From positions 4,425-68,424 of the forward strand of contig CAZJRD010000011.1 in NCBI GenBank assembly GCA_964548365.1: DNA of 64,000 nt. The letters run 5' to 3'. Positions 13,963-63,074 of the stretch are shown here, one piece after another. Positions within the stretch are counted from its first letter, which is position 1; every line of letters begins with the position of its first letter. The translations under genes and the position numbers were made by a program. Below the pieces are notes generated by a model. It saw nothing but the letters and a program-made list of their open reading frames with translations. It was not told the origin of the DNA and did no database searches. Origin of the DNA: an uncultured Desulfobacteraceae bacterium (GTDB taxonomy: Bacteria; Desulfobacterota; DSM-4660; Desulfatiglandales; Desulfatiglandaceae).

Positions 13963-14583
13963 TCAGAGGATCCGACCTTGCTCAAACAATCTCTCTACAT
14001 TCAGCCTGTTTACAGCATCCGTAAATAGCTCTCCAAGGGCCTCATCAGCTCCCTTCTTGCCGACTACCTTGTATCGTTCCGTCTGAGCACTGATGCTCTG
14101 TGTAGCAAGAAGCTTGCCATTATCCAGGAGTCTGGCCTCATACCTCATACTTGCGAGCCATTTGCGGTCGAGAAAATTCAGTGAGAACTCCTGGAGCACA
14201 ATGGTCACCTGTGGTGCGGAAGTTCCCGGAGCAGTCAGAACCCGGAAACCCATATTTTCAAGCCGCCGCTTGAAACCATCCTTTACCATATCCATCAATT
14301 GATAAGGTCCAAGCCTGAAACCCGACTGCTGGTACTTTGCGATGCTGTAGATAATATTTCCGGGGAAGTTTCTGAGTTCTCTCCGGGCGCCTTCCCCCAG
14401 GATATTCCTTGAGGGTCGGGCATCTTCCAGGACGAAATAAACTTCGCGGCCTGAAAACTGGCTTGAATTCTGGGGAAGCCGGTAGAGCACTTTCAAATTG
14501 GTTATGGACGCGCAGGAAACCAGCAAAGCCGTCAACAAAAAAGCACCGGCCAGGGCTCCAATCATTCGATTTTTCTTTTTCAT
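13963..14583 (-). CDS. Lipoprotein of unknown function
   Basis: Signal peptide with lipobox LLVSC. SD aaaggag. No recognisable catalytic motif. Confidence 0.7.
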   Translation of the reverse strand: MKKKNRMIGALAGAFLLTALLVSCASITNLKVLYRLPQNSSQFSGREVYFVLEDARPSRNILGEGARRELRNFPGNIIYSIAKYQQSGFRLGPYQLMDMVKDGFKRRLENMGFRVLTAPGTSAPQVTIVLQEFSLNFLDRKWLASMRYEARLLDNGKLLATQSISAQTERYKVVGKKGADEALGELFTDAVNRLNVERLFEQGRIL

Positions 14584-35729: not shown

Positions 35730-36518
35730 TCACTCGTCGTTATCCTCCCTTTTCAGCACCTCGGAAATTGAGCGAGCCAATTCAAGTATAAGGCCGGAAT
35801 ACTCCTCTTCCATCGCTTGAGCAACTTTTTGAATAATCGAAAAATCAAACGAAACCCCGCCCAATCCCCTACCGGTATCCAGATTGATCAAAGGGGCACC
35901 AATAGTGATAAGTCCGGGTAAATACTCTTCAACACACATGGCATAACCCCGGCCTTTTGTCCTTTCGATTTCCTTGAGCAATTGGTCCTTGGCGACTATG
36001 GTTTTTTTGGTTTTGGCTGTGAACTCTATCCTGGCAACTTTTTTCTTCAGAGAATCATCAGGGAGAGTAGAGAGATAAGCCTTTCCTATTGAAGTGTTGT
36101 GAAGGGAATTCCTAGCCACAGCAGGAAGGTGGTAGGTAAGCGTTTCTTTAGCCTCACGCTGATAAGCTCTCATGAGATTGTCATCCACCACAAAAGCAAC
36201 GTCTATGGTAATGTTGTACCGGTTATAAACCTCGTCGACTAACTTTTTTATAAGTCGTAAATCATCGCTTGATCGAATGACATTTGTGCTGAGTGCCAGG
36301 GATCTGATCCCCAACCTTACTTCTTTTGTCTTGGCGTCTTTTTCGAGATACGCCAGTTCCACGAGGGTATTAACGAATCGATAGGTGGAGGTCATGTTCA
36401 ACGACAAGATCCGCGAAATTTCGGTTTGAGTGAGGCTGCGAGTTTCTGTATCGAACAGGGAAAGTATTTTTAATCCTTTTTCTAATGAAATTGAAAAATA
36501 CTGCTTGTCGGACGCCAT
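35730..36518 (-). CDS. IclR-family transcriptional regulator
   Basis: wHTH (LTQTEISRILSLNMTSTYRFVNTLVELAYLE) plus an IclR effector domain. ATG 36518 chosen over the longer ORF. Confidence 0.85.
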   Translation of the reverse strand: MASDKQYFSISLEKGLKILSLFDTETRSLTQTEISRILSLNMTSTYRFVNTLVELAYLEKDAKTKEVRLGIRSLALSTNVIRSSDDLRLIKKLVDEVYNRYNITIDVAFVVDDNLMRAYQREAKETLTYHLPAVARNSLHNTSIGKAYLSTLPDDSLKKKVARIEFTAKTKKTIVAKDQLLKEIERTKGRGYAMCVEEYLPGLITIGAPLINLDTGRGLGGVSFDFSIIQKVAQAMEEEYSGLILELARSISEVLKREDNDE

Positions 36519-36647
36519 ATGTGCCCATAGGGAATTGTTTTTACTATTATCGTAATAACTTTCCGAAAATAGTAAAAGCATCTACGGATTTTGTCAAGAA
36601 AAAATTCAAGGCTCTCAGGAAAGAGGTCTCACCGGGGCGGGAACGAT

Positions 36648-37121
36648 TTAACTTACGCCCTTGTACTCTGTTTCAGGAGGCACACAGAGCACAGGCCGCG
36701 TGATAAACCGCAAAATCTTTTCGGCCGTGCTCCCGAAAAAAATGGTGTTCATATCGTCGGCCTTGCCGCAGCTCCCTATGACAATCATTTCCGCATCCAG
36801 TTCAACCGCCTTCTTGTTAATTTCCACAAAGGGCTCTCCTTCACAGACCATGGGTTCGGCCTGGATTCCGTTCTTCTCTTCCTGAGCAAGAAAATCATGG
36901 AGTCTCCTCTTGGCCTCCAGGAACAAATTCTTTTTGATCTCATTCAGTTCGCCGAGATCATGACGCACGCATTTGTCAATAAAATGATGGTCCACTACGT
37001 GGAAAGCCACTATATGACCATCCCGGCCCTTCAATAATTCATATGCCTTGCGAAGGGCCAGGCGAGAACAATGGGAAAAATCCACGGGAACAAGAATCGT
37101 CGCTGTTTTTTCATCTTTCAT
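36648..37121 (-). CDS. Universal stress protein
   Basis: 157 aa. ILVPVDFS start, C-terminal IVIGSCG..FGSTAEKI motif. SD aaggagg. Confidence 0.85.
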   Translation of the reverse strand: MKDEKTATILVPVDFSHCSRLALRKAYELLKGRDGHIVAFHVVDHHFIDKCVRHDLGELNEIKKNLFLEAKRRLHDFLAQEEKNGIQAEPMVCEGEPFVEINKKAVELDAEMIVIGSCGKADDMNTIFFGSTAEKILRFITRPVLCVPPETEYKGVS

Positions 37122-37235
37122 CTTTTCACCTCCTTACTTGCCCTCTCTGTATTTCTTTTTCCTTATGCATCATCCATAGTTACGCTCTCGAGTAGGGACG
37201 TTCGGCTTCTCTTCCCGTCATGATTGAATCCGACT

Positions 37236-37871
37236 TCACTTTCCAGCCTTGATCACGACAAATGCCCCAGAGCCACTGCCAGGACGAACAGGTTCTATGT
37301 CATTGATCTTTTCCAGTTCCATGGAAAGAGTTTGTCCTTCAGAAATGCCGGAAAACCCTGCATTCCGCAAGAGAGAACGCACTTCAGCAACTGAATAGAA
37401 AGTTGCATTTTTGTAAAAAGTACTCCCGGCCTTGTTGGCAAGATATTGCTTTCCAAGTGCACTGACTCGATCAACAAATCCAAGAATGATGGGGGCTTTT
37501 TTCTTGAGCACCCTATACGCCTCTGAAAGAGCGGCTCCAGCATCATGCACAAAACAGATGGTTGTCACAATGAGGCAGTAGTCAAAAGATGTGTTCCTGA
37601 AAGGGAGAGCTTCTGCTATTCCCTGGACACAGGAGATTCCCTTCCTGGCGGCGTAGCCGAGCATGTTCCCGGAAGGATCCAATCCGATATCCGTTCCCAG
37701 GGGGCCGGCGAATCGCCCGGTTCCTACTCCTATTTCAAGACCCAGGCCATTAAGAGGTAAGAATGCGCGCACAGCAAGCAATTCTGAAAGATATGCTGCA
37801 TGGTTGCGAATAAACCACTCCTCATATTGTTCATGATGAACGTCGAACACCTTATACAGAGCTGCACTCAT
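37236..37871 (-). CDS. Class I SAM-dependent methyltransferase
   Basis: 211 aa. Motif I LEIGVGTGRF; Methyltransf_11-like. Confidence 0.8.
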   Translation of the reverse strand: MSAALYKVFDVHHEQYEEWFIRNHAAYLSELLAVRAFLPLNGLGLEIGVGTGRFAGPLGTDIGLDPSGNMLGYAARKGISCVQGIAEALPFRNTSFDYCLIVTTICFVHDAGAALSEAYRVLKKKAPIILGFVDRVSALGKQYLANKAGSTFYKNATFYSVAEVRSLLRNAGFSGISEGQTLSMELEKINDIEPVRPGSGSGAFVVIKAGK

Positions 37872-37901
37872 AATTGCGATTATCCTCGTGCGGAATCACT
37901 T

Positions 37902-37988
37902 CTTACACCTGACATGAGGAAAGTCTGATCCATTCGTCATCATCGACGAGTAATACTCTGAGATTTTTCAATTCAGAAAAAAGGTCCA
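37902..37988 (-). pseudogene. 28-codon stub of a receiver gene (MDLFSELKNLRVLLVDDDEWIRLSSCQV*) 30 nt upstream of the methyltransferase
   Basis: The first 22 codons parallel the receiver at 21612 (MDFFSELKNLRVLLVDDDEWIR). The frame then diverges and stops. Confidence 0.7.
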
Positions 37989-38192
37989 TCTCGATAAACT
38001 TCACCACAGCAGAGTCTATACTGTCAATTGATCTTTTGAAACAGATCTCTGCTAATACCATTAAGCATGAAATAAGCCACCTTCATTTCGGAGGTTAATA
38101 AGCGTAAATACAAGGAGTTATGCGAGGAATAGACCGGGTTAAAGGCGAGAAAATTCGAGAAAATTCAAATCATCTTTTCCCAAAATTGAGAA
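37924..38192 (-). repeat. Promoter plus receiver-5'-end module, copy B
   Basis: Direct repeat of 21548-21828, 16.4 kb away. Confidence 0.85.
38064..38079 (-). promoter_or_regulatory. Sigma54 -24/-12 promoter (stub ORF / methyltransferase)
   Basis: Minus strand TGGCTTATTTCATGCT with correct GG-N10-GC spacing. Confidence 0.6.
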
Positions 38193-38241
38193 AGAGAGGA
38201 AAAGACCCGACCGGGAGATGCAGGACCAATAAGTTGTTTCT

Positions 38242-39954
38242 TCAACGTTTTACCGGCTCCTCTGATGATATTTCATCATCACTTTCCAATTGAAACAGGC
38301 AGATATCTCTCCGATGGATCACGCCAAGGAATCGCTTTTGATCACCTTTTTCAACAACCGGCAGGTAAGGAAGCTGAGAGATCTCCGACTGACGCAGGGC
38401 AAGGGCCAATGGATCATCGGGGTTTATGGTCTCAATTTTCTCGGCCACATCGCGGGCAATGATCAAGCGTGTCAGGTCCCGGTCAAAAGACAGATTACGG
38501 ATGGAACGAAGCGATAGCATTCCTATCCATTCATTGTCTCTTCCGATGACGGGCAACATGGTGTACCTGCTATTCTGCATAGTTTTTATGACCTTATCCA
38601 ATGTCGCGTCCTGCGGGATGGTATCAATATGATATCTCATAAGGTGCTTGACAAGAATCGGTCCTTCCTGCCCGCCGATTCTACAGAAAGGGGCCCTTCC
38701 AATGGCCTCCATCAACCGGTCGCGCAACAACAACAGATCGGCCTTCAAATGCCCAACTGTGGGGATTGACAATATCTTTACTATCTTAACCTCTCCTCCT
38801 CTAACCAGGCTGAGCTTGGTCAATATGGGCCCTGCTACTTCAAAGACCACAGTGGTGGCAAGGATCAGGGCGAGGAGGGGCCCGCCGATGCCGGGATTTT
38901 CCCTTGCCGCCCACGCGGAAAGGCCGATCGCGAGACCGGCCTGGGGCAAAAGCCCCATGCCCAAATAGATGCCGCTCGGTACATTCACCCCGGCAATGCT
39001 CCTTCCCAGGAGTCCCCCAAACATCTTTCCGGCGGCCCTGCCAAGAATATATATCCCGCCTGACAACCCCATTTCCTTTACCATTTCAATATGGAAACTT
39101 GCCCCGGCAAATGCGAAAAAAAGCGCATACAGCGGATAATCAACCTCGCTTAATCGTTTCACGGCTATTTTTGCCCTGTCACAGGTATTGACCAGAAAAC
39201 CTCCCATTATCAGATTCGCCAGCAGGGCAGAAACAGAAAAATAGAGAGACAATCCTACTCCCAGCAGTATCCCTGCCAGGGAAGCCAGGAGAATCTCATT
39301 CTGTTCAAGGCCCCTCCGCAGATAGTAGTGCAGAAACAGCGCGATCCCCACACCGAGAAGAATGGGGACAAGTATTCCACGAGCGACTTCTGTAGCTGCA
39401 AAAAGAAAAGTGGATCCCATGGCCGTATTTTGCGGTGCTGATGAGACCATGCTCATGGCAATCACAAAAGCGATAATGCATAGCAAGTTGTTCAAGCCGA
39501 CCAGGGCCATAATATGGTCGGTAAGGGGACCCTCGGAATCAAATTCCCGTATGACCAGAAGAGTGGCGGCCGGGGCCGTAGCAATGGAAAGTATTCCGAG
39601 CATGGACGCCATGCCAAATGCGCCCTTGATTGCAAGAAGTACCGCGAGAAAAACGATCAAAAATGTGATCGACACATCAGTTATGAAAAAAAGGGGAAGT
39701 GTTTTCTTGAGCCTCTGGAATTTCTTGCTCTCAAATTCCGTTCCAATGTAAAACGCGATGATCCCTAAGGCTATTTCACTAACAAAAGTAAAGTGGGCGA
39801 CTTCTTGTCTTGTCAAAAAGCCGGTGATGGATGGGCCGATCAGGAGCCCGGTTAATAGGTATCCGGTTACCCGCGGCAGCCGGAACAAGGAAGCGATCCT
39901 GCCCCCTGCAAGAGCCAGGACCAAAACAATGGCTAAGGTGAGAATATGATTCAT
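38242..39954 (-). CDS. CPA2-type cation:proton antiporter with C-terminal CBS pair
   Basis: 570 aa. Multi-TM Na+/H+-exchanger-like body (LPRVTGYLLTGLLIGP) plus two CBS motifs at the C-terminus. Confidence 0.85.
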   Translation of the reverse strand: MNHILTLAIVLVLALAGGRIASLFRLPRVTGYLLTGLLIGPSITGFLTRQEVAHFTFVSEIALGIIAFYIGTEFESKKFQRLKKTLPLFFITDVSITFLIVFLAVLLAIKGAFGMASMLGILSIATAPAATLLVIREFDSEGPLTDHIMALVGLNNLLCIIAFVIAMSMVSSAPQNTAMGSTFLFAATEVARGILVPILLGVGIALFLHYYLRRGLEQNEILLASLAGILLGVGLSLYFSVSALLANLIMGGFLVNTCDRAKIAVKRLSEVDYPLYALFFAFAGASFHIEMVKEMGLSGGIYILGRAAGKMFGGLLGRSIAGVNVPSGIYLGMGLLPQAGLAIGLSAWAARENPGIGGPLLALILATTVVFEVAGPILTKLSLVRGGEVKIVKILSIPTVGHLKADLLLLRDRLMEAIGRAPFCRIGGQEGPILVKHLMRYHIDTIPQDATLDKVIKTMQNSRYTMLPVIGRDNEWIGMLSLRSIRNLSFDRDLTRLIIARDVAEKIETINPDDPLALALRQSEISQLPYLPVVEKGDQKRFLGVIHRRDICLFQLESDDEISSEEPVKR

Positions 39955-40080
39955 AGAAACCCGCCGTCAACTGCTTCATTTCGGTTTCCCGTATATCAAG
40001 TATCCTGGTTAAAATAAAGCATCCTAAACATCTATACGTACCGGTTACCCGAGCCTCGCGCTCATGCTCCCATTCTCGTG

Positions 40081-40902
40081 CTACTGGGCATAACTCATTC
40101 TATTTTCGTATAGGTGAAGCCGTTTCTGGAAATTCTTGTTTGGAGGTTTTGATTTTCGGTAGGCCTCGGTTTCGACCCTGACTGCTTCTTTGAATGCCCC
40201 GCACTCGGCATAGGCGGCTGCGAGGGTATCCATCCAGGCTCCATTTTTCCCTATTTCGAGTGCTTTTTGTGCCAAGGCTATCGCCTTTTTGCAATCGCGA
40301 TACCTCGGATCCTTGGCGGTGACCAAGAGCCAGGCAAGATTATTGTAGGAGCCCCCACTCATGGGATCAATTTCGATTACCTTCTGATAATCTTTGATGG
40401 CATCTCTATACCGTTCGAGACCGGTCATGATGACCGCGCGGTTGTGCAGGTAATCAGATCTTTCAGGGCTGATGGATAAGGCGCTGTTTATTTCTTCCAG
40501 TGCCTCCTGGAGCAGCCCTTTTCTGGCACGAACCCCCGCCCGAAGGGAAAAGGCGGGTGCGAAGGACCTGTTCAATTGCAGACAAGCTGATGCATCCGCC
40601 AGCGCGTCATCGGGACGGCCGCTGTACATCTTTACCTGTCCGCGTTCAAAAAAACATTCTGCGCACTCAGGGTTCTCTTCAATGGCCTTGTCAAAGTCCG
40701 ATATGGCGGCATCATGATGTCCCATCTTGGCATACGTTATGCCCCTGTATCGAAATGCCTTGCATTTTTCTTGACTCAACTCACTCGCTTGGGTAAAGGC
40801 GCGAAGAGCATCTTCCAACTTGCCTTTTCGAGCAAGATCAAGGCCTCTTTCCAGCTCTTGTTCTGCCTCACCACTCGGGTGTTTCCTCGTCTTATCAGAC
40901 AC
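40081..40902 (-). CDS. TPR-repeat protein
   Basis: 273 aa of consecutive 34-aa TPR-like repeats. GTG start with SD agagga. Confidence 0.8.
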   Translation of the reverse strand: MSDKTRKHPSGEAEQELERGLDLARKGKLEDALRAFTQASELSQEKCKAFRYRGITYAKMGHHDAAISDFDKAIEENPECAECFFERGQVKMYSGRPDDALADASACLQLNRSFAPAFSLRAGVRARKGLLQEALEEINSALSISPERSDYLHNRAVIMTGLERYRDAIKDYQKVIEIDPMSGGSYNNLAWLLVTAKDPRYRDCKKAIALAQKALEIGKNGAWMDTLAAAYAECGAFKEAVRVETEAYRKSKPPNKNFQKRLHLYENRMSYAQ

Positions 40903-40969
40903 TACTCATCCTCTTCGGCCATGTCAGACACCCATGGGAACCTTTTCTCCGGCCATGCATCCGTATAAT

Positions 40970-41662
40970 CTAAATGTTGGCCGCATCCACCTCATTTTCG
41001 AGCTTTTTCAACAAAGCAAATGTGCCCAGATTCGGGTATAATCGGCCTTTGAGCGCCATTGATATCCACCCTTTCTCTTCAGAAACCACAATAACCAGGG
41101 CATCACTTACCTGGCTGAGACCAACGGCTGCACGATGACGAGTTCCCAGTCCGAGCCTCTCCAGTTCAACAGCTTGCGGCGCCAGGGGGAGCAGACACCG
41201 GGCTTTTCGGATATGGCCATTTCTGATAAGCGCCGCCCCATCATGGAGTGGACTTCCCGGATAAAAGATGTTCTCCAGGAGAGTTGCATTCACCTCGGCC
41301 TCAATGATGACTCCCTGCCGAAGATACTGATCCAAATCGTTTTTCTGCTCGATCACAATGATGGCTCCATGACGCTTCGAACTCAGCCGGGAAATCGCAA
41401 GGATGACCTCCCCGGGGACCCTTATGTTGGGAGAGATACAACATTTCAGATGCCTCTGGAGCAAACCCTTCTCCAATCGGGTAAGTCCTTCTCGTATTTC
41501 ATATATTTCCTGGAGGAAATTACTCAGATAAGAACACTGCTTCAGGCAGGAAAGCGCCCCGTGAAGATCGAGAAGCTGGCATTTCAGATCTACAAGCCTT
41601 TCCTTAATGGCCTCTTCCTCACTGAGAATGGGATCATACTTCGGCGGCATCATTTCACCCAC
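40970..41662 (-). CDS. Diadenylate cyclase (DAC domain) with coiled-coil N-terminus and no TM anchor
   Basis: DGA motif (PLHDGAALI) and RHR motif (LGTRHRAAVG). The start could be GTG 41662, ATG 41653 or ATG 41650. Confidence 0.85.
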   Translation of the reverse strand: MGEMMPPKYDPILSEEEAIKERLVDLKCQLLDLHGALSCLKQCSYLSNFLQEIYEIREGLTRLEKGLLQRHLKCCISPNIRVPGEVILAISRLSSKRHGAIIVIEQKNDLDQYLRQGVIIEAEVNATLLENIFYPGSPLHDGAALIRNGHIRKARCLLPLAPQAVELERLGLGTRHRAAVGLSQVSDALVIVVSEEKGWISMALKGRLYPNLGTFALLKKLENEVDAANI

Positions 41663-41725
41663 TTTTTTCCAATTCTCTCCAACCTAAGGGCTACCAACTA
41701 CAATAATATCTCCTCCATGAAAAAA

Positions 41726-42181
41726 CTATCTCCTTGTCAGTCCGGGCACCATGGCCGGCGGAATAACCAGTACGGGACAGGGCGACCACAGAAGAGTATC
41801 CATTGTCACCGCCCCCAAAGGACCTACCCGAACATCTTCTCCTGTCTGGATGGGAACTTTTGTGTCGGTACCCATGACAATAAGATCCACCGATGCGTTC
41901 CTGGCGAGCTTGACAATCTCACTCACCACATCTCCATCCGACACATTGATGGAATAATTGTCAAACCCCTGGCCCTTCATCTTGTCAACGTAGGCCTCCT
42001 TAACACGCGCTTCCGCCTTGCTTATTTCTTTCACTGTCTCATCTTTGGTTAGGTTAAGACGTCCGAGCCCATAATAAATCCAAAGTTTTGCGTTATGTTC
42101 TTTCGCCATATTGAGCGAAAAGTGCAGGATGTGTTCACAATACTCCGTCAGGCAGGTACAAAACAGAATTTTCTTGTACAT
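41726..42181 (-). CDS. Universal stress protein
   Basis: 151 aa from an ATG with SD ggggggagg. KILFCTCLT..., C-terminal VMGT-type motif. Confidence 0.8.
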   Translation of the reverse strand: MYKKILFCTCLTEYCEHILHFSLNMAKEHNAKLWIYYGLGRLNLTKDETVKEISKAEARVKEAYVDKMKGQGFDNYSINVSDGDVVSEIVKLARNASVDLIVMGTDTKVPIQTGEDVRVGPLGAVTMDTLLWSPCPVLVIPPAMVPGLTRR

Positions 42182-42205
42182 CGTCCTCCCCCCTTCCTGG
42201 ACAAG

Positions 42206-42256
42206 GGGATATCCTGGTGCGGTTTCCGTATCCTCATGCACGCACCAGGATATCCC
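42206..42256 (-). other. Perfect 16-bp stem-loop between the 61-aa ORF and the USP gene
   Basis: gggatatcctggtgcg (42206-42221) pairs with cgcaccaggatatccc (42241-42256), with a 19-nt loop. No U-tract. Confidence 0.6.
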
Positions 42257-42300
42257 TGTGAACGTATCTCCATCCCACCCGAACCACGGGATGGCACCGA

Positions 42301-42486
42301 TTACCTTCCGCCGTTCGGGAAGGCCATTTCATCGCATCTCCAGCAACCCTGCTCCCGCAGGTCACCGCCAAAATCGATGTCCTTGTCGCACAGCCAGCCG
42401 TTCCCGTCTTTGTCCTGAAAGTACTTCAAAGGACGGGCAGGAATGTGGGTATCGGTGGTAGCCTCGAGTCTTTTGTCTTCTGCCAT
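42301..42486 (-). CDS. 61-aa conserved-looking Cys-containing protein (hypothetical)
   Basis: SD aaaggag 8 nt before the ATG. First gene after a sigma54 promoter. Contains WLCD..GCWRCDE. Confidence 0.55.
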   Translation of the reverse strand: MAEDKRLEATTDTHIPARPLKYFQDKDGNGWLCDKDIDFGGDLREQGCWRCDEMAFPNGGR

Positions 42487-42545
42487 TTTCTTTTCTCCTT
42501 TGTGATGCTGAAATATTTTTTGATTCCTGTTACTTAATTACATAG

Positions 42546-42561
42546 AGCATCAAACGTGCCA
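42546..42561 (-). promoter_or_regulatory. Sigma54 -24/-12 promoter
   Basis: Minus strand TGGCACGTTTGATGCT, near-perfect against TGGCACG-N4-TTGCW. About 50-nt leader to the 61-aa ORF. Lies directly downstream of a bEBP gene. Confidence 0.8.
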
Positions 42562-42684
42562 AAAAGGAGAAAGCGTTTCTTCAAAAAAACAACCTTGTTT
42601 TTTCAATATATTAGAAATAATGAACAGGATAACAAGAAGAGAAGGGGCGGAGAAGAGTCGCAACTGTGCTACCGCAGGAATTAG

Positions 42685-44076
42685 CTAAGAGTGCATGAAC
42701 GCTACCCTGCCTTCCGGTTTGTGCCGGCCGTCCTGATCGGGCAGACGAATACCAAGCTTTTTTATCTTGCGAAAAAGGGTTGTCTTGTGGATCCCCATCT
42801 CCCGGGCCGCAGCGAGGCGGTTCCACTTGTTCTTCTTCAGCATAAAGATGATGAATTGCCGCTCCATTTCTTCGAAGGTGTCGGCGCGGACAAAGGAATC
42901 CAGGGTGGGACGTAACGAATCCGGCAGGTGTTTTACGTGAATCAGACCTCCCGGGGAAAGCACATACCCATGTTCGATAATATTTTCAAGCTCCCGAATA
43001 TTACCCGGGTAGTCATAGCTCATCAGAATATCGAAGGCGTCGTGGGAAACGGCTGCTATATCCTTGCTGTACAGGGCCGAAAAACGACTGATGAAATGGT
43101 CAACGAGCAACGGCACATCTTCCAACCGTTCCCGCAGAGGCGGGATCTCGAGCTTTATAACATTGACCCTGTAATAAAGGTCCTGCCTGAAAGTGCCGTC
43201 CGCCACCATCTTATTCAGGTCGCGGTTGGTTGCCGTAATGATCCGCACATTGGCGTTCAAGGGACGGGTGCCCCCGAGAGGCTCGTAGATCTTCTCCTGC
43301 AGTACCCGGAGCAACTTCACCTGGAGCGGGAGAGGCAGGTCCCCGATTTCATCAAGGAACAGGGTGCCTCCTTCGGCCCTCGCAAAACGGCCCTGCCTTG
43401 CCCTGGTGGCGCCGGTAAAGGCGCCTGATTCATGGCCAAAGAGTTCTGATTCGATCAGGGTTTCGGGGAACCCCCCGCAATTGACAGCGACAAACGGGTT
43501 TTTATTTCTCTGGCTCAATCCGTGAATCGCCCGGGCAAAAAGTTCCTTCCCGGTGCCGCTCTCTCCGGTTATCAGCACGGTGCTGTCACTTTCCGCTATG
43601 GTAGGAAGAATACCCAGAATCTTTTTTACCTTATTACTCTTACTGATAATATCTCCAAAGGAGTAACTCTTTTTAATCTCCTTCCGGAACTCCTCAACTT
43701 GCCTGAGGTCGCGGAAGGTTTCCACCCCTCCTCTCAAATTGCCGTCTTTATCTTTGAACACCGCAGTTGAGATGCTCACCGGGACCTGCGTTCCATGGCT
43801 GTTTTCAAGATATACAGCGAGATTCACAACCGGCCTTCCGGTCTCAATGGTATAGCGCATGGCACAGGTGTCCCTGCAGATATTTGACTTCAAGACCTCA
43901 TAGCATCGGCGACCTATTGCTTTTTTCCGTGATACCCCGGAGATGCGTTCTGCCGCCTTGTTGAAACAGGTGATCCGCCAGTCAGAATCAACCGTCATCA
44001 CGCCATCACTGATACTCTGGATCACCGCCTCAAACCGTTCGGGAGACGGGTCATCAAGGAAATATAGAGCTGTCAT
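42685..44076 (-). CDS. Sigma54-dependent transcriptional activator (PAS - AAA+ - HTH)
   Basis: PAS N-terminus, Walker A GESGTGKE, GAFTGA loop, C-terminal HTH (AAREMGIHKTTLFRKIKKLG). ATG 44076 with SD aagga. Confidence 0.92.
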   Translation of the reverse strand: MTALYFLDDPSPERFEAVIQSISDGVMTVDSDWRITCFNKAAERISGVSRKKAIGRRCYEVLKSNICRDTCAMRYTIETGRPVVNLAVYLENSHGTQVPVSISTAVFKDKDGNLRGGVETFRDLRQVEEFRKEIKKSYSFGDIISKSNKVKKILGILPTIAESDSTVLITGESGTGKELFARAIHGLSQRNKNPFVAVNCGGFPETLIESELFGHESGAFTGATRARQGRFARAEGGTLFLDEIGDLPLPLQVKLLRVLQEKIYEPLGGTRPLNANVRIITATNRDLNKMVADGTFRQDLYYRVNVIKLEIPPLRERLEDVPLLVDHFISRFSALYSKDIAAVSHDAFDILMSYDYPGNIRELENIIEHGYVLSPGGLIHVKHLPDSLRPTLDSFVRADTFEEMERQFIIFMLKKNKWNRLAAAREMGIHKTTLFRKIKKLGIRLPDQDGRHKPEGRVAFMHS

Positions 44077-44118
44077 ACACAAATTCCTTGTTTGTGAAAG
44101 GTCATTGGTTGAGGCTCA

Positions 44119-44352
44119 TTACCGTGTCATAGCAGTGCCACATTTCGGGCATCGCTGATCATAGCAGGGCATACCTGCCTGGTGCGGGACCTTTTCTCCG
44201 CAGTTCGGACAAACACAATCCCCGCCCGATCCTGCGCCGGAACCACCTCCTCGACCTCTTCCACCACCGCTTCCCGTACCTCCGCGGCCTCCCATGCCTC
44301 TTCCGGTACCGGGACCTTGCCCTCTCGGGCCTGTTCCATCTCCTCTCGGCAT
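44119..44352 (-). CDS. DUF5320-like small Gly/Arg-rich zinc-ribbon protein
   Basis: MPRGDGTGP start, a GR-rich tract, then CVCPNCG...CPKCG. SD aaggagg. Confidence 0.7.
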   Translation of the reverse strand: MPRGDGTGPRGQGPGTGRGMGGRGGTGSGGGRGRGGGSGAGSGGDCVCPNCGEKVPHQAGMPCYDQRCPKCGTAMTR

Positions 44353-44430
44353 ACTGTCCACCTCCTTTTCAATAATAATGATTGACTCCAACGAACTTCT
44401 TGAAAAATATTCTTTCTGACCTCAGCAGCT

Positions 44431-44439
44431 ATTATAGCA
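44431..44439 (-). promoter_or_regulatory. Extended -10 promoter candidate (TGcTATAAT) for the DUF5320 / bEBP unit
   Basis: Minus strand TGCTATAAT. The -35 is weak. Confidence 0.3.
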
Positions 44440-44533
44440 CAGAGTACTTTGGACCTCCGCCACCCTCTGGTGGAACCCATGTGATGTTTTCATAAGGATC
44501 TTTAATGTCGCATGTCTTGCAATGAAGGCAGTT

Positions 44534-44566
44534 AAAAGAGAGGGCAGAGATTCCAATCCACTGCCC
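44534..44566 (-). terminator. Intrinsic terminator candidate after trxA
   Basis: Minus-strand stem GGGCAG / CTGCCC with a 13-nt loop, followed by CTCTCTTTTAA. Confidence 0.45.
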
Positions 44567-44601
44567 CCAAATCCCTTGGAAACCCCTTTATCAGCTACTG
44601 C

Positions 44602-44919
44602 TCAAAGAATGGACTCGATTTTCTCTGTAATCATTGATTCCGGGACCGCTCCTATGATTTCATCTATCCTTTTTCCGTCTTTGAAAAACATCAGCGTGGG
44701 GATGCTCATGATCCCGTAGTTCATTGCCGTTCCTTGGGCTTCATCAACATTCATCTTACAAAACTTGAATTTGCCGTCGTAATCCCCGGAAAGTTTCTCA
44801 ACAGTCGGCGAAACCATGTGGCAAGGGCCACACCACGGTGCCCAGAAATCTACAAGGACCGGCATTTCCGATTTCAAGACCTCTTCCTCAAAATTCTGTT
44901 CAGTTATTTCGTTCACCAT
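44602..44919 (-). CDS. trxA: Thioredoxin
   Basis: 105 aa. WCGPC active site. Confidence 0.93.
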   Translation of the reverse strand: MVNEITEQNFEEEVLKSEMPVLVDFWAPWCGPCHMVSPTVEKLSGDYDGKFKFCKMNVDEAQGTAMNYGIMSIPTLMFFKDGKRIDEIIGAVPESMITEKIESIL

Positions 44920-44951
44920 TTTTTCTTTTCCTTTCTTTCCTTTTTGAAAAA

Positions 44952-45608
44952 TTATGCGTTATGCAGTTTATTCGCCTGATCAACGAGCAAGGATTTCAAC
45001 CGATCCAGGCTAATGGCATATGGTTGGATAGGGATGCCCATCCAATCGGAATATTCAAGGAAATCCTCGGGACGTTCCGCCATATAGCGGTCAATGTAAC
45101 CGATGCCGTCCAGGACGATCGCCCCTCCTGTATGCCGCGGGAAATTTTCATTCGCGAGCCCCTGGTCCCACCCCTTGAACACGTAGTGCCGAAATTTCAC
45201 CCAGCCCGGTGTCATCCACCAGACCTTTTCTCCACCTGCCAGTTCCTGGGCTATCCGCTCCCGTTCTTCTTCACTGGCCAGCATGTCCATGCAGTGGGTC
45301 GCGTCTATCCTTGAGACATTCGGCCCCATCTCCTCAATAATTTTTTTCATGGTCCGGTAAGGATCGTCGCTGTTCACGTAACAGAATTTTCCCCCATAAA
45401 CCACGAGGATCTTGTCCGCTTTCTCTTTTGCCTTGTTGACCCGATAAATCAACCGTTGCTCAAGTTCTTTTGGTATTTCGTGGAGGCCCGGGGTATTGTA
45501 AAAGATGTGTCTTGCATCCAGAAAGCCTTCCTTTTGCAAGTGGCTTAACTCCAAACTTATTGTTCCACACGCTACTATGGCTATATCTGAAAAAGATACC
45601 TGATCCAT
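44952..45608 (-). CDS. DUF1638-like protein
   Basis: 218 aa from ATG 45608 (SD aggagg). Family recalled from the overall pattern (IAIVACGT..., VVYGGKFC..., HCMDML). The longer ORF-track model overlaps the ferredoxin gene. Confidence 0.6.
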   Translation of the reverse strand: MDQVSFSDIAIVACGTISLELSHLQKEGFLDARHIFYNTPGLHEIPKELEQRLIYRVNKAKEKADKILVVYGGKFCYVNSDDPYRTMKKIIEEMGPNVSRIDATHCMDMLASEEERERIAQELAGGEKVWWMTPGWVKFRHYVFKGWDQGLANENFPRHTGGAIVLDGIGYIDRYMAERPEDFLEYSDWMGIPIQPYAISLDRLKSLLVDQANKLHNA

Positions 45609-45618
45609 CACATTCCTC

Positions 45619-45981
45619 CTATCCAAAATGATGAAACCTGCGTTCAAGTGTCCGGTGAAACTGATCCGAAATTTGGGAAGGCTGTAGAGAAAGCGCATCT
45701 TCGGGACATTCTCGAACACAGTATCCGCAACCGATACACCTTTCGGTATCCACTTGGGCCTGTTCGTGGATAGTGATCGCCTCCACAGGGCAGACAGAGT
45801 CACACATTCCACATCCAACACATTTCACCGTATCTACGAAGGCCTTCCATTGGGGTTGGATCGACTGAAGCTTCCGGGCCTTTCCGATCCGCCTCTCCAG
45901 TGTTGCCAGCCGCTCCTTTATTACTCCAACCCTCGCCTTCAGCTCTTGAATCTCTTTTTCACGACCGACTTCATTTTCCAT
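45619..45981 (-). CDS. 2x[4Fe-4S] ferredoxin-domain protein with coiled-coil N-terminus
   Basis: CVGCGMCDSVCP and CIGCGYCVRECP. ATG 45981 lies 17 nt after the upstream stop. Confidence 0.75.
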   Translation of the reverse strand: MENEVGREKEIQELKARVGVIKERLATLERRIGKARKLQSIQPQWKAFVDTVKCVGCGMCDSVCPVEAITIHEQAQVDTERCIGCGYCVRECPEDALSLQPSQISDQFHRTLERRFHHFG

Positions 45982-45997
45982 TTTTCGTCCCCTGACT

Positions 45998-47908
45998 TCA
46001 CAACTGGCGAGCCAGCTCGTAGCCGCTTTGAATCGCGCTGAAAATATCCTGCACCTGATTTGCATCACCAATGATTTCTATCCTGGAGACCGCATTTTTT
46101 ATCTCCCGGTCAGGTCCTTTCGCCGAATTCATTCCCGAGGAGAGAATGACCGTCTGGAAAGGTTGAAGAGACTTCTGAAACCCGCCCTGTTCCATTTCAA
46201 CCTCTCCAGCAGAAAATTTCTTCACCGTGGTATGGGGCATAAGAGTCACCTTGGTTATTTTTGCGAGCCGCATGAGGAGTAGTTTCCTCGTGATCATCTC
46301 CATCATGCTCCCGATAGGATCTGTCCGTTTCGTGGCCACCACTTCATAGCCCTGTTTGCCCAGTTTCTCCGCGATTTCCAGCCCGACTCTTCCTGCGCCG
46401 ATCACCAACACTCTCGGCCCCAGGACCTCTTTCTCTCCTTTGAAGTATTCAAGAGACGTCAGCACTTGCTGATCCTGAAGCCCGGGGATGTCCGGGATGT
46501 TTTGCACCGCTCCGGTGGCCCACACCAGCAATTCCGGCGCCTGTTCCTGCACAAGAGCCGCATCAGCTTTCCTGTTGAGCATGACTGAAACCGGACTTTT
46601 CATGACCTGGTGCTCGAGGGCCTTGAGACCCGCTTCCATGCCCGACTTGCCAGGCGCCTGCCAGGCAAGGGTAAATTGTCCTCCCAGCTGATCACCCGCC
46701 TCTGCCAGGGTAACCTGGTGTCCCCGCTTTGAGAGGTAAAGGGCGGCGCTCATGCCCGCAGGCCCGCCGCCGGCAACAAGGACCTTCAATGGATTGACCG
46801 CCTGCTCCAATGGGGGCAACCCCACCTCCGGATTCAGGTTGCATCCGAGGGGATTTCCGCTTTTCAGACGATGGAGGCACCCCTGGAGACAGTACCCGCA
46901 GGACATGACCTCTTCTTCCCGGCTGTCCCGCCATTTTTCAACCAGATCCGGGTCAGCGATCAAGGGCCTTCCCAGCGCCACAAGATCCGCAAGGTTTTGT
47001 TCTATCACTTCCAGGACTTTTTCTTTTCTGCCCATCCTCCCGGCTGCAATGACAGGCAAGGAGGTTTGCCCGCGAACCCAGGACAGGGAATCCATCTGAG
47101 GCTTTTCAGGAAGACTGCCATGGTGGAAGTACCAGGGCGGGCTGAAGCAGGAATTTCCCATGCCCACGTGAATCGCTGCGATCTCCTCTTGATCAGCCAG
47201 GTGCAGGAGCGACGCCAGGTCTTCCCGGCTGATCCCAGATTCCGGGGACATCTCGTTTCCGGAAATCCGCAAGATGAGAGGGATATGGGGAGCCCCTTCT
47301 TTCACCTTTGACAACACCTCCCTGGCAAACAACCGACGATCTTCACCGAAGTCATCTTCTCTTTTGTTTATCTTGCTGTTAAGAAACTGTGACACCAGAT
47401 ACCCGTGGCCCCCCTGGACTTCTATCACATCAAACCTTGCGGTCACTGCCTTCGCCGCGGCAGCTCTGTATCCGTCAAGAATTTCCTGGATTTCATCCAC
47501 TGTCAGGGCTGTGGATTCCTGCCCTGTAGTGAGACACGTGATCGTTGATGGAGCCCTTGGTTGCCCGCCCGACGCCTTAGGATTTGCCGCCGCACCCGCA
47601 TGGTTCAGGTGGAGGCTCGCGAGCCGCCCTTGTCCGTGTATCACATCAACGATTTTCTGCAACTCGGCAGCACTCCCGGGCAGATGGACACAAAGCTGCT
47701 TTGGATGTTCTCTTCCGTCCGGCGTAACTGCAACGGGTTCCAGGATAATCAGGGCGGGCCCGTCTTTTGCGATCTGGCTGTAAAAGAGCAGTTGGCGGTC
47801 TGTTACTCTGCCATCCGGGTTCCCATATCCAAGCTTTATGGGTGGAAAAATAAACCGGTTCACCAGTTTCTTATCGCCTATTGTATATGGTCCAAACATC
47901 CTTTCCAT
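45998..47908 (-). CDS. OYE-like FMN oxidoreductase fused to an FAD/NAD(P) domain (2,4-dienoyl-CoA-reductase-like architecture)
   Basis: N-terminal OYE barrel pattern, CGYCLQGC Fe-S motif, GGGPAGMSAA and GAGRVGLE dinucleotide folds. ATG 47908 with SD aggagg. Confidence 0.8.
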   Translation of the reverse strand: MERMFGPYTIGDKKLVNRFIFPPIKLGYGNPDGRVTDRQLLFYSQIAKDGPALIILEPVAVTPDGREHPKQLCVHLPGSAAELQKIVDVIHGQGRLASLHLNHAGAAANPKASGGQPRAPSTITCLTTGQESTALTVDEIQEILDGYRAAAAKAVTARFDVIEVQGGHGYLVSQFLNSKINKREDDFGEDRRLFAREVLSKVKEGAPHIPLILRISGNEMSPESGISREDLASLLHLADQEEIAAIHVGMGNSCFSPPWYFHHGSLPEKPQMDSLSWVRGQTSLPVIAAGRMGRKEKVLEVIEQNLADLVALGRPLIADPDLVEKWRDSREEEVMSCGYCLQGCLHRLKSGNPLGCNLNPEVGLPPLEQAVNPLKVLVAGGGPAGMSAALYLSKRGHQVTLAEAGDQLGGQFTLAWQAPGKSGMEAGLKALEHQVMKSPVSVMLNRKADAALVQEQAPELLVWATGAVQNIPDIPGLQDQQVLTSLEYFKGEKEVLGPRVLVIGAGRVGLEIAEKLGKQGYEVVATKRTDPIGSMMEMITRKLLLMRLAKITKVTLMPHTTVKKFSAGEVEMEQGGFQKSLQPFQTVILSSGMNSAKGPDREIKNAVSRIEIIGDANQVQDIFSAIQSGYELARQL

Positions 47909-61001: not shown

Positions 61002-63074
61002 TTACAACTTCCGAATTCTTTCCAAATCTTCCTGCTCTCCTACCAGTATGAGCACGTCTTTCTCATTAATCGTGTAATCGGCATCTGGAACCATGCGTTT
61101 CTCCCGGCCGTCTCCCAATTCCCTCTTGACCAGAAATACCTGGACACGATAATTGTTTCGCAGGTCCAACTGAAGAAGACTTTTTCCCACAAATCGGTGA
61201 GGCGCTGGAATCTCAACCATAGAGTAGTTGTCCACAATCTTCGTGATATCGGAGAGCGCCAGGGAAGAGTAGGCCCGTTCGAGTCCGAGTGTCGGTTCCC
61301 TTCTGGCCAGTTCCTTGTTGTATTCGTCAATAAGAATCTGCCTGGTCAGATATCCCAGCAAGAGATGACTTTTCTGGGCGTCCACCACCGGGAGTTCGCC
61401 TACACCGGACTTTCCGAATACTTTCATGACCGTGTCCAGATTTGTATCCGGTGTGATGTATGTTGGATTGGTCTCAATGAGGTCATACGCCAAAATGATA
61501 TTGTTGAGAGGCGTGGGATCGTCCATGACTGTCCGGATACTTTTCTCCGTAACATATCCGAGAAATCTGTCGTTCTCGTCCACCACACAAAAAATTTCGT
61601 GCTCGCTGTTCATAATGGTGGCGATAATATCCTTGAAGGGAGTGTCGGGCGCGAGTCTCTCGCAATCCTTTTTGTACACATCCTCGACTTTAAGAAATTG
61701 TAACACGTTGATTTCTTTCTCCTTGAAAAAGTGAATGCCGCGTTTCACCAATTTCAACGTGTAAATGGATTCGGGCTGCATTTTCGTCGTAAAAGTGACT
61801 GCAATAATGGTTGCAATCATCAGGGGTAGGATAATCGTATAGTCATTGGTCATTTCAAAAATAATGATAATCGAAGTAATGGGCGCGTGGGTGACGGCCC
61901 CCACAAAGGCGCCCATTCCCACCATGGAGTAGGCCCCCGATGAGGCCGTAATCGTCGGGAAGAATTGGTGGACAAGCATCCCCACGGCGTTGCCGATCAT
62001 GGCTCCGACAAAAAGAGAGGGTGCAAATATTCCACCGGAGCCGCCCGACCCCAAGGTAAAGGATGTGGCCACAATTTTTAACACCATCAGGATGAGCAGA
62101 ATATTCCATGAGATATGCCCTGCCAGCGATTCGTTTATCCCTTCGTAACCCACACCGTAAATTGCCGGAAAAACGATTCCCAGCCCACCGACGATTAATC
62201 CTCCGATGGCGGGTTTGATATAATCCGGAAATTTCCAGTCATCAAAAAAGTCTTCCAAGGCATACAACAATTTGATAAAAAACAGACCGGCAATGCCTGC
62301 AATCAATCCCATTCCGGCGTAAAAAATCAACTCCCAGGGGGATACGAGAGTGTATTTGGCGACTATGAAGGCCGGAAAATCTCCGAGATAATGACGTGAT
62401 ATAACGGTGGAAGTCACCGATGCAATGACGATGGGACTGAACTGCATCACTCCGAAATCGCCGAAAATAATTTCGATGGCAAAGAGTGCCCCGGCTACGG
62501 GGGCATTAAAGGCTGCCGCGATGCCCCCGGCGGCACCGGCTGCCACAAGCGTCCGCAGTTTCTCCGGCGGCAGCTGAAACCATTGGCCTATCATCGAACC
62601 GATTGCAGAGCCGATCTGCACGATCGGGCCTTCACGTCCGGATGATCCACCGGAACCGATGCAAATTGAACTGGCGACAATTTTGGCGAGTACGACTCTC
62701 GGTCGTATCATGCCGTTTCGGAGCAGGATGCTCTCCATGACCTCGGGTACTCCGTGGCCTTTGACCTCTTTGGAGAGAAAGGTGACGATCGGCCCGACCA
62801 GCAGCCCACCGACGGCAGGCATGAAAAGCTTCTGGTACCACGGCAGGCGCGCTACCATGCTCAGAGAATAGGCGACATGTTGTGTGGAAGCGACCTGAAT
62901 CAGGTGGATCAAATACCGTAAACCAAGGGCGCCGTATCCTGTTATCAACCCGACAAAGACCGCCAGGATGACCATAAGGGTGTGCTCGGCCATCTTCAAA
63001 CGGTCTACTACCTTTACAACAGATTCTCCCCATCCTCCGGACTCAAGTGGATTTTGACGATCTGGATTCTGCAT
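61002..63074 (-). CDS. ClC-family chloride channel/antiporter with CBS pair and TrkA-C (RCK_C) domain
   Basis: 690 aa. GHGVPEV, GREGP, GIFAPS selectivity motifs. Two CBS motifs and a terminal RCK_C-like domain. Confidence 0.9.
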   Translation of the reverse strand: MQNPDRQNPLESGGWGESVVKVVDRLKMAEHTLMVILAVFVGLITGYGALGLRYLIHLIQVASTQHVAYSLSMVARLPWYQKLFMPAVGGLLVGPIVTFLSKEVKGHGVPEVMESILLRNGMIRPRVVLAKIVASSICIGSGGSSGREGPIVQIGSAIGSMIGQWFQLPPEKLRTLVAAGAAGGIAAAFNAPVAGALFAIEIIFGDFGVMQFSPIVIASVTSTVISRHYLGDFPAFIVAKYTLVSPWELIFYAGMGLIAGIAGLFFIKLLYALEDFFDDWKFPDYIKPAIGGLIVGGLGIVFPAIYGVGYEGINESLAGHISWNILLILMVLKIVATSFTLGSGGSGGIFAPSLFVGAMIGNAVGMLVHQFFPTITASSGAYSMVGMGAFVGAVTHAPITSIIIIFEMTNDYTIILPLMIATIIAVTFTTKMQPESIYTLKLVKRGIHFFKEKEINVLQFLKVEDVYKKDCERLAPDTPFKDIIATIMNSEHEIFCVVDENDRFLGYVTEKSIRTVMDDPTPLNNIILAYDLIETNPTYITPDTNLDTVMKVFGKSGVGELPVVDAQKSHLLLGYLTRQILIDEYNKELARREPTLGLERAYSSLALSDITKIVDNYSMVEIPAPHRFVGKSLLQLDLRNNYRVQVFLVKRELGDGREKRMVPDADYTINEKDVLILVGEQEDLERIRKL

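Follow-up and report, generated by a model that had tools for sequence, protein, structure and literature searches.

A predicted accessory diadenylate cyclase with a CsoR-like domain, located behind a conserved sigma-54 promoter in an uncultured Desulfatiglandaceae bacterium

In this work, we analyzed a diadenylate cyclase (DAC) gene in a 64,000-nucleotide stretch of DNA (the window) from an uncultured Desulfobacteraceae bacterium (GTDB family Desulfatiglandaceae; assembly GCA_964548365.1, contig CAZJRD010000011.1, positions 4,425 to 68,424), where it lies downstream of a gene for a bacterial enhancer-binding protein (bEBP) and of a sigma-54 promoter. We propose, with a probability of roughly 0.55, that this locus joins two modules, namely, a unit resembling that of the redox-responsive activator OrpR, which would serve a 61-aa three-cysteine microprotein that we call sp61, and an accessory cyclase that carries a CsoR-like N-terminal domain. 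The anatomy of the locus, its conservation, the intact catalytic motifs of the cyclase and the domain homologies are established.

Organization of the locus

An earlier note on this DNA had listed six genes, for an activator, a 61-aa open reading frame (ORF), a universal stress protein (USP), a DAC, a tetratricopeptide repeat (TPR) protein and an antiporter with CBS domains, and every one of them is present. All six lie on the minus strand, and coordinates are in window numbering throughout. The features, in the direction of transcription, are as follows.

42685-44076, minus strand: bEBP with PAS, Sigma54_activat and HTH_8 domains (Pfam; Sigma54_activat, 5.5e-71)
42693-42705, minus strand: upstream activator site (UAS) 1, GTAGCGTTCATGC, which overlaps the bEBP gene at its 3' end (GTAGC-N5-YGC)
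42660-42672, minus strand: UAS 2, GTAGCACAGTTGC (GTAGC-N5-YGC)
42546-42561, minus strand: sigma-54 (-24/-12) promoter, TGGCACGTTTGATGCT (GG/GC spacing and conservation)
42301-42486, minus strand: sp61, 61-aa three-cysteine microprotein (ORF; no Pfam or NCBIfam family matched)
~42271-42295, minus strand: smaller hairpin, in the same intergenic region as the 16-bp hairpin
42206-42256, minus strand: predicted intercistronic RNA hairpin with a stem of 16 bp and without a U-tract (fold, covariation)
41726-42181, minus strand: USP (Pfam Usp, 6.2e-14)
40970-41662, minus strand: DAC, whole gene (PF02457, 1.9e-39)
41423-41662, minus strand: DAC residues 1-80, CsoR-like helical-hairpin domain (AF2 model and profiles)
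41042-41398, minus strand: DAC residues 89-207, catalytic domain with DGA, RHR and VSEE motifs (PF02457; CdaA/CdaS alignment)
40081-40902, minus strand: TPR protein (Pfam TPR families)
38242-39954, minus strand: CPA2-type cation/proton antiporter with a C-terminal CBS pair (Na_H_Exchanger, 2.2e-19; CBS, 1.5e-14)

We compared this region with 68 loci that encode relatives of the cyclase and with 23 loci that encode relatives of sp61 and come from many genera within the class. The compared loci are phylogenetically related, so the counts given below are not independent.

The sigma-54 promoter unit and its activator

The promoter that the earlier note had placed at 42561-42546 is borne out, and together with the bEBP it makes up a real regulatory unit that is conserved in relatives. 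The element TGGCACGTTTGATGCT matches 11 of 12 consensus positions and has the canonical GG/GC spacing. Taken alone, this match is weak evidence, with 0.61 such matches expected by chance per window and two or more, as observed, reached in 14 of 100 shuffles. We consider the promoter real because its position is kept: a -24/-12 element lies 71 to 123 nt 5' of the sp61 gene in 22 of the 23 related loci. A gene for a PAS-containing bEBP is found within 2.4 kb of sp61 in 21 of these loci.

Upstream of the promoter, at distances of 99 and 132 nt and thus 33 nt apart, are two GTAGC-N5-YGC sites. The tandem arrangement is kept in the seven relatives that have enough upstream sequence, and a single site is present in the extract of an eighth locus (L025). 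The window holds four matches to this pattern, compared to 0.79 expected, and two of the four are those at this promoter. Promoter, UAS and bEBP are therefore kept together with sp61.

The bEBP has the GAFTGA motif, at residue 218, in its AAA+ sigma-54 interaction domain, and the genome encodes one copy of rpoN (on contig C89). The PAS domain of this bEBP contains Cys38 and the series Cys59-x-Glu61-x6-Cys68-x3-Cys72, and every orthologue that is linked to sp61 and at least 55% identical keeps C59, E61, C68 and C72. In OrpR, the PAS residues C52, E54, C61 and C65 bind a redox-sensitive [4Fe-4S] cluster, and the spacing of the Cys and Glu residues in the window's bEBP is identical to that of C52/E54/C61/C65 (PMC8359166). 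We class the protein as OrpR-like and not as an OrpR orthologue; the genes downstream of it differ from those of the orp operons. The exact OrpR motif is absent from the bEBPs near more distant DAC orthologues, and the bEBPs at other DAC loci have different Cys-rich PAS domains.

The gene next to the promoter, sp61, belongs to a family for which we found 270 clusters of homologues, 66 to 95% identical and none of them named. Residues C33, C48 and C51 are invariant in this family and H14 is nearly so. The conservation pattern indicates that sp61, together with the TPR protein or USP, and not the DAC, is the conserved primary target of the promoter, and sp61 is its first product. The DAC, on which the earlier note had centered its reading, lies elsewhere in sister lineages. 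In one genome of the same genus (G055; L079:7001-7975), two copies of sp61 flank the USP gene, the second of them in the position that the cyclase has in the window.

Other sigma-54-like elements were also seen. The window contains a second match to 11 of the 12 consensus positions (TGGCAAGCTTCTTGCT, 14104-14119, minus strand) and, between the antiporter gene and a methyltransferase gene, the element TGGCTTATTTCATGCT (38064-38079, minus strand). A similar element follows the antiporter gene in one related locus (L004, 11495), where it is 5' of the gene for a Cys-PAS kinase.

The cyclase has a CsoR-like N-terminal domain

The earlier note had described the N-terminus of the cyclase as a coiled coil. 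We found instead that it is homologous to the sensor-like domain of the CsoR/RcnR family, as judged from profile comparisons. A profile of the N-terminal domain matched, among PDB entries, CsoR (4m1p, 1.4e-8), InrS (1.1e-6), Mycobacterium tuberculosis CsoR (3.7e-5) and FrmR (1e-4); in all, eight CsoR-family entries were matched at 1.4e-8 to 3.4e-4, with two more at ~0.2 to 0.3. A direct comparison with the CsoR family by hhalign gave a probability of 95.6%, and 11 of 15 family members matched PF02583 individually, one of them, P0245, above the cut-off (28.0 bits against 22.8).

Within the cyclase family, C43, H71, C74 and C75 are invariant, and a C-x24/27-H-x3-C signature persists in relatives at ~35 to 47% identity, among them 11 of the 69 short representatives checked. 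Residues H71 and C75 align exactly on the CsoR ligands, which form a His-x3-Cys motif at the end of helix 2, and relatives with C-x24-H-x3-C match the canonical CsoR positions exactly. A model of the DAC predicted by AF2 (AlphaFold2) from a diverse alignment has a pLDDT of 84.9 and places N-terminal helices at residues 11-39 and 43-76. An intramolecular disulfide or metal site between C43 and C75 was rejected, as these residues lie at opposite ends of one helix of ~32 residues in this model; an intersubunit, CsoR-style site fits the model better. Cyclase activity is probably gated posttranslationally by a thiol-reactive or metal signal, with Cu(I), persulfide or an oxidant as candidates. Given the CsoR-like domain, the likely signal shifts from ion homeostasis to redox, metal or sulfur stress.

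Class of the cyclase and other c-di-AMP genes of the genome

The DAC motifs are intact (DGA141, RHR175 and SEE194) when aligned with the structures of CdaA and CdaS, and the highest Kyte-Doolittle value in any 19-residue window is 1.22, which predicts no transmembrane segment. These results agree with the earlier description of a soluble DAC with DGA and RHR motifs and no membrane anchor; an inactive enzyme, which that note had raised as a possibility, is not what the motifs predict. The top Foldseek match of the DAC model is 2fb5_A, over its full length (203 columns, TM-score 0.68), and the same structure, Bacillus cereus CdaS, is the best solved relative. The best family model is likewise that of CdaS (NF038328), with an E-value of 1e-50 and a score of 172 bits, under the cut-off of 225. 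The Pfam family of the CdaS N-terminus (PF10372, CdaS_N) was matched by two relatives in each of two scans, always under the cut-off. On these grounds, we class the DAC as an accessory soluble cyclase with a CdaS-like fold.

The genome also encodes a housekeeping cyclase, a 483-aa CdaA fused to YbbR/CdaR-like repeats (C95:5238-5582; L002:1150-2601), and a PgpH-type phosphodiesterase. A third, DacZ-like frame is broken (C19:36939-37091; L003:836-1669) and matches residues 70 to 118 only of the DAC profile; with its RHR region apparently missing, it is possibly a pseudogene. Neither a c-di-AMP riboswitch nor DarA was found in the genome. We also considered a defense role. The PanDA-type defense cyclase has a DAC of ~150 aa with no regulatory domain and adjoins a 2TM effector (PMC13640721); this reading was rejected, as the window's DAC is 230 aa long with an N-terminal domain and no gene matched PADLOC.

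Transcription beyond the sp61 hairpin

If the cyclase is expressed from the sigma-54 promoter, transcription has to continue past the hairpin behind sp61. The 122-nt intergenic region that contains both hairpins (42182-42303) has a predicted fold of -53.7 kcal/mol (z = -2.9), and 25 nt separate the larger hairpin from the USP start codon. In close relatives, this hairpin shows two compensatory pairs along with three U-A to U-G changes, a covariation consistent with a structured RNA in the sense transcript. No Rfam family was matched in positions 36000 to 46000. A GC-rich hairpin of 13 to 17 bp, unrelated in sequence, follows the sp61 stop codon in all 11 lineages examined, and in none of these 11 did we see a canonical U-tract behind it.

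Where the TPR gene follows sp61, the gap between them is 67 to 101 nt and consists mostly of the hairpin, so that a promoter for the TPR gene would not fit. The distance from hairpin to TPR gene is 5 to 35 nt in other lineages, and in one of them (L082) the stem runs right up to the TPR start codon. Since the next gene could not have a promoter of its own in so short a space, the hairpin appears to be intercistronic and transcription probably reads through it. In G055, the second sp61 copy lies 34 nt behind the USP gene and is followed by a canonical hairpin and U-tract terminator, so in that genome transcription must pass the first hairpin. Farther along, the gap between the USP and DAC genes is 63 nt in the window compared to ~27 nt in a near relative (L005), and no sigma-70-like promoter or terminator was predicted between 42546 and 40903, that is, from the sigma-54 promoter to the TPR gene. 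We therefore take the hairpin to be an intercistronic attenuator, a 3'-end stabilizer or both and infer that it does not act as a full terminator. Given the short gaps and the absence of a predicted promoter or terminator, cotranscription of the DAC is the parsimonious reading, and its expression from the sigma-54 promoter in this genus is plausible, with the odds somewhat in its favor.

The strongest rival to this reading holds that only sp61, perhaps with USP, depends on sigma-54, that the hairpin stops or processes most transcripts, that the DAC, TPR and antiporter genes use weak, unrecognized promoters of their own and that the DAC is controlled posttranslationally only, by way of its N-terminal domain. 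We give this explanation a real but clearly smaller chance than the two-module proposal. It draws on the strong hairpin behind sp61 in every lineage, on the canonical terminator 5' of the TPR gene in G055, on the independence of the DAC from the promoter in three loci (L007, L008 and L067) and in many others, and on the 63-nt gap between USP and DAC in the window, which could house a weak promoter. It is countered by the missing U-tract and the short distances from the hairpin to the next gene (25 nt to USP, 5 to 35 nt to TPR elsewhere), by the narrowing of the USP-DAC gap to ~27 nt in L005, and by the lack of any predicted promoter or terminator inside the cluster. The earlier note had named termination at the 42206-42256 hairpin as one outcome that would refute its reading; of that concern, the presence and conservation of the hairpin stand, and full termination is disfavored by the missing U-tract, the lack of room for a promoter and the pass-through in G055.

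Candidate c-di-AMP receptors in the cluster

c-di-AMP binds some USP, CBS and RCK_C domains. A second rival builds on this general knowledge and sees in the cluster a conserved, signal-gated ion-homeostasis module, in which a sigma-54-driven DAC signals to the USP and to the antiporter CBS pair as dedicated receptors. The genes are codirectional, as this reading would have them, and USP genes recur nearby: in 6 of 35 loci a Usp gene is the immediate upstream neighbor of the cyclase, with USP matches within ~3 kb in some 16. We nevertheless consider it improbable, since neither candidate receptor carries the expected hallmarks. The SxS-x20-FTAxY motif by which KdpD binds c-di-AMP is absent from both USP proteins of the window, which argues against the earlier suggestion of a KdpD-type receptor. 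The USP of the cluster (41726-42181) has a degenerate, noncanonical ATP motif; the other (USP2, 36648-37121) has a motif of the ATP type. The antiporter CBS pair, which the earlier note had counted among plausible receivers, scored 31 bits against the CbpB model, for which the cut-off is 125, and is generically CBS-like. By Pfam, the antiporter consists of Na_H_Exchanger and CBS domains only, with no RCK_C. The USP and antiporter may be c-di-AMP targets, a role to which none of these features specifically points.

Conservation of the linkage bears on the same question. DAC, USP and antiporter genes stand together, as the earlier note would have them, only within the window's genus and its nearest relatives. 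For the antiporter, linkage to the cluster is limited to L004, L051/L083 and L079, from three close genera. The antiporter gene stays with sp61 and TPR where the DAC is gone (L079 and L083), and the lack of a c-di-AMP riboswitch and of DarA in the genome also speaks against a dedicated ion-homeostasis module.

Elsewhere in the window, the ClC channel that the earlier note had described (61002-63074, minus strand) was confirmed, with Voltage_CLC, two CBS domains and TrkA_C. It is the only protein of the window with an RCK_C-type domain.

Gene order and recurring neighbors of the cyclase

The order sp61-USP-DAC-TPR, with or without a following CPA2 antiporter gene, was found only in the window, G054, G058, L005 and L006. 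In seven loci the TPR gene comes directly after sp61, and orthologues of the USP lie 3' of sp61-TPR in six others. Another arrangement, promoter-sp61-TPR-USP-methyltransferase-DAC, is seen in L025, and in some sister lineages the DAC is kilobases from the promoter.

Across 209 genomes of the class, the cyclase is present in 28, sp61 in 36 and both in 10; thus, 18 carry only the DAC of the two and 26 only sp61. In all eight genomes that have both and can be resolved, the two genes are no more than 6 kb apart.

The most frequent immediate upstream neighbors of the cyclase in 35 to 40 orthologous loci are Usp (6 loci) and DUF1638 (6 of 35 loci), and USP matches occur within ~3 kb of it in some 16 loci. 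The most frequent downstream neighbors in the same set are PAS proteins (six), of which four are histidine kinases and three have sigma-54 activator domains, which means that the two signatures coincide in at least one of them. The Cys motif of OrpR occurs in 16 of 848 long ORFs in DAC loci compared to 3 of 5,806 in the window's genome, figures that overstate independence because the loci are related. These 16 proteins are seven bEBPs and nine PAS histidine kinases, several of them adjoining the DAC. The recurring partners of the cyclase, as read from these neighborhoods, are thus Cys-PAS sensors and USPs and not sigma-54 as such.

A chance juxtaposition, in which the cyclase sits in a rearrangement-prone stress and redox island with no tie to the bEBP/sp61 module, would account for the highly variable gene order around the DAC and for the 18 and 26 genomes that have one gene without the other, and we rate it the least likely of the alternatives given that the two genes, although their order differs, are no more than 6 kb apart in each of the 8 resolvable genomes with both and that Cys-rich PAS sensors, bEBP or kinase, adjoin the DAC far above their genome-wide rate.

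Several features of these neighborhoods are noted in their own right. PAS-HisKA-HATPase kinases of ~380 aa with the motif CG[DE]ILQGGMCxxxC adjoin either the CdaS-like cyclase or the bEBP/sp61 module; no kinase of this type was found in the window's genome. They are located as follows.

L013:5834-7120, L015:4334-5458, L020:2332-3045 and L040:2619-3761: Cys-PAS kinases
L046:2059-3183, L004:6422-7579, L005:4421-5593 and L025:1096-2247: Cys-PAS kinases

A DUF1638 protein (6.4e-22) is encoded in the window at 44952-45821 (minus strand), in a neighboring sigma-54 operon, and a DUF1638 gene is 5' of the bEBP gene in L073. Genes for metal transporters adjoin the cyclase or sp61 in other loci, L074:5830-6855 among them (ZIP in two, Cation_efflux in one and ArsP_2 in two), and their recurrence is a weak hint of a metal signal.

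Proposed explanation and its significance

In the two-module explanation, the first module, widespread in anaerobic Desulfobacterota, consists of the OrpR-type bEBP, the two UAS, the sigma-54 promoter and sp61 with its hairpin. By analogy with OrpR, low redox potential would keep the Fe-S cluster of the bEBP intact and oxidation would shut the promoter. Bound at the two UAS, the bEBP would activate sigma-54 RNA polymerase to yield a transcript with much sp61 and, past the hairpin, less of the USP, cyclase, TPR and antiporter messages. The second module is the accessory CdaS-like cyclase, which would be gated at its CsoR-like Cys/His/Cys site. In this genus, the USP and cyclase genes lie between sp61 and its usual partner, the TPR gene, and the CPA2-CBS antiporter follows; it is because of this placement that the cyclase is most likely cotranscribed from the sigma-54 promoter. 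Like this cotranscription, the signals and any c-di-AMP receptor role of the USP or CBS domains are at most what we infer from the locus.

A number of observations count against this proposal. The hairpin could end most transcripts, promoters may lie inside coding sequence, and scans for the sigma-70 consensus are unreliable in this phylum. The window's cyclase alone matches PF02583 with an E-value of only 0.05, and C43 in the window's clade lies 3 residues, or one helical turn, before the canonical CsoR cysteine. In another member of the genus (L007/G057) the order is bEBP-DAC-promoter-sp61, with the DAC 5' of the promoter, and in L008 and L067 it is DAC-bEBP-promoter-sp61, followed in L008 by TPR-USP; in all three loci, the sigma-54 unit does not include the DAC. 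The genome G053 has lost its USP gene by deletion and retains only residues 109-222 of the DAC, and in the genome of G055, of the same genus, no CdaS-like DAC was found. As the DAC is outside the unit, lost or truncated in these relatives, sigma-54 control of it does not appear to be under long-term selection, and the wiring of the cyclase to sigma-54 is, from the distribution of gene orders, recent and local to this genus and its nearest relatives.

At the G053 junction (L051:7815-8339, the same locus as L083), there is an inverted repeat, CTTAACGTTAAAGATTGTAA...TTACAATCTTTAACGTT, that resembles a scar left by a deletion or a mobile element.

The signals that control c-di-AMP synthesis are a long-standing gap, and we know of no input signal for enzymes of the CdaS class. 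A regulatory domain homologous to metal and persulfide sensors of the CsoR/CstR type offers a concrete candidate input, and the repeated placement of the cyclase beside PAS sensors of the Fe-S type, here apparently within a sigma-54 operon, offers a further one. That a cyclase with a CsoR-type domain has joined the sigma-54 unit of a putatively redox-sensing activator in this genus suggests that strict anaerobes couple c-di-AMP to redox or metal stress, which would connect this nucleotide to the redox physiology of sulfate-reducing and aromatic-degrading anaerobes. A broader scheme, in which c-di-AMP in strict anaerobes is under two-tier redox, metal or sulfur control, by an OrpR-type Fe-S sensor that sets transcription of the cyclase through sigma-54 and by a CsoR-type site that directly gates its activity in response to Cu(I), persulfide or an oxidant, is tentative and in our view would more probably fail than hold; if it were true, the N-terminal domain that autoinhibits CdaS-class cyclases would, by extension, be a degenerate CsoR-like sensor.

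The earlier note knew of no description of a DAC controlled by sigma-54 and a bEBP, and our literature search agrees: it found no paper linking either sigma-54 or CsoR-like domains to diadenylate cyclases, with a 2023 catalogue of 22 DAC architectures falling outside the search, and a review on Chlamydia treats sigma-54 and diadenylate cyclase separately only. That catalogue is reportedly the work of Galperin; the CsoR-like architecture may already be included in it, which makes priority uncertain. A 2017 review limited CdaS to Bacillus and one Clostridium (PMC5575661), and a 2026 survey of gut genomes reported it in Bacillota only (PMC12901056). The cyclase described here extends CdaS-like enzymes beyond the spore-forming Firmicutes.

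Comparison with known systems

CpaA and KhtTU are CPA2 transporters regulated by c-di-AMP, and the USP domain of KdpD from Staphylococcus aureus binds c-di-AMP. The locus resembles these systems in that a CPA2 antiporter and a USP are encoded beside a c-di-AMP cyclase. It differs from CpaA and KhtTU in its antiporter, on which a CBS pair takes the place of RCK_C, and from S. aureus KdpD in that the USP lacks SxS-x20-FTAxY.

CdaS is the sporulation-specific diadenylate cyclase of Bacillus. Like CdaS (2fb5), the window's DAC is soluble and belongs to the size class of ~200 to 230 aa, with an N-terminal two-helix domain joined to a DAC domain, and it accompanies CdaA as a second, accessory cyclase. 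In contrast to CdaS, it comes from a Gram-negative anaerobe, scores under the family cut-off (172 compared to 225 bits) and is found in a sigma-54 cluster and not in the context of a sporulation sigma factor. Its N-terminal domain also keeps the CsoR-type Cys/His/Cys triad, which the aligned Bacillus-like sequences lack.

With the CsoR/RcnR family (CsoR, CstR, InrS and FrmR; PF02583), the cyclase shares an antiparallel helical domain, a His-x3-Cys motif that closes helix 2 and a Cys near the start of that helix. Unlike these DNA-binding repressors, it has the domain fused to an enzyme, with the third helix replaced by a linker to the DAC domain and, in the window's clade, with the first Cys shifted by three residues.

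The closest parallel to the promoter unit is OrpR with the orp operons of Desulfovibrio vulgaris Hildenborough, where the activator is likewise a PAS-AAA+-HTH bEBP with Cys-x-(Asp/Glu)-x6-Cys-x3-Cys (PMC8359166). In both systems, the upstream sites are imperfect palindromes and the cognate sigma-54 promoter adjoins the bEBP gene. The Fe-S cluster is a property of OrpR and, from the Cys motif, is predicted for the window's bEBP. The two systems also differ in the UAS, which is GTAGC-N5-YGC here and GGGCGYRTTTTGCGCCC for OrpR, and in what lies downstream: the targets of OrpR are the orp genes, whereas those of the unit described here would be sp61 and, in this genus, the USP, DAC, TPR and antiporter genes.

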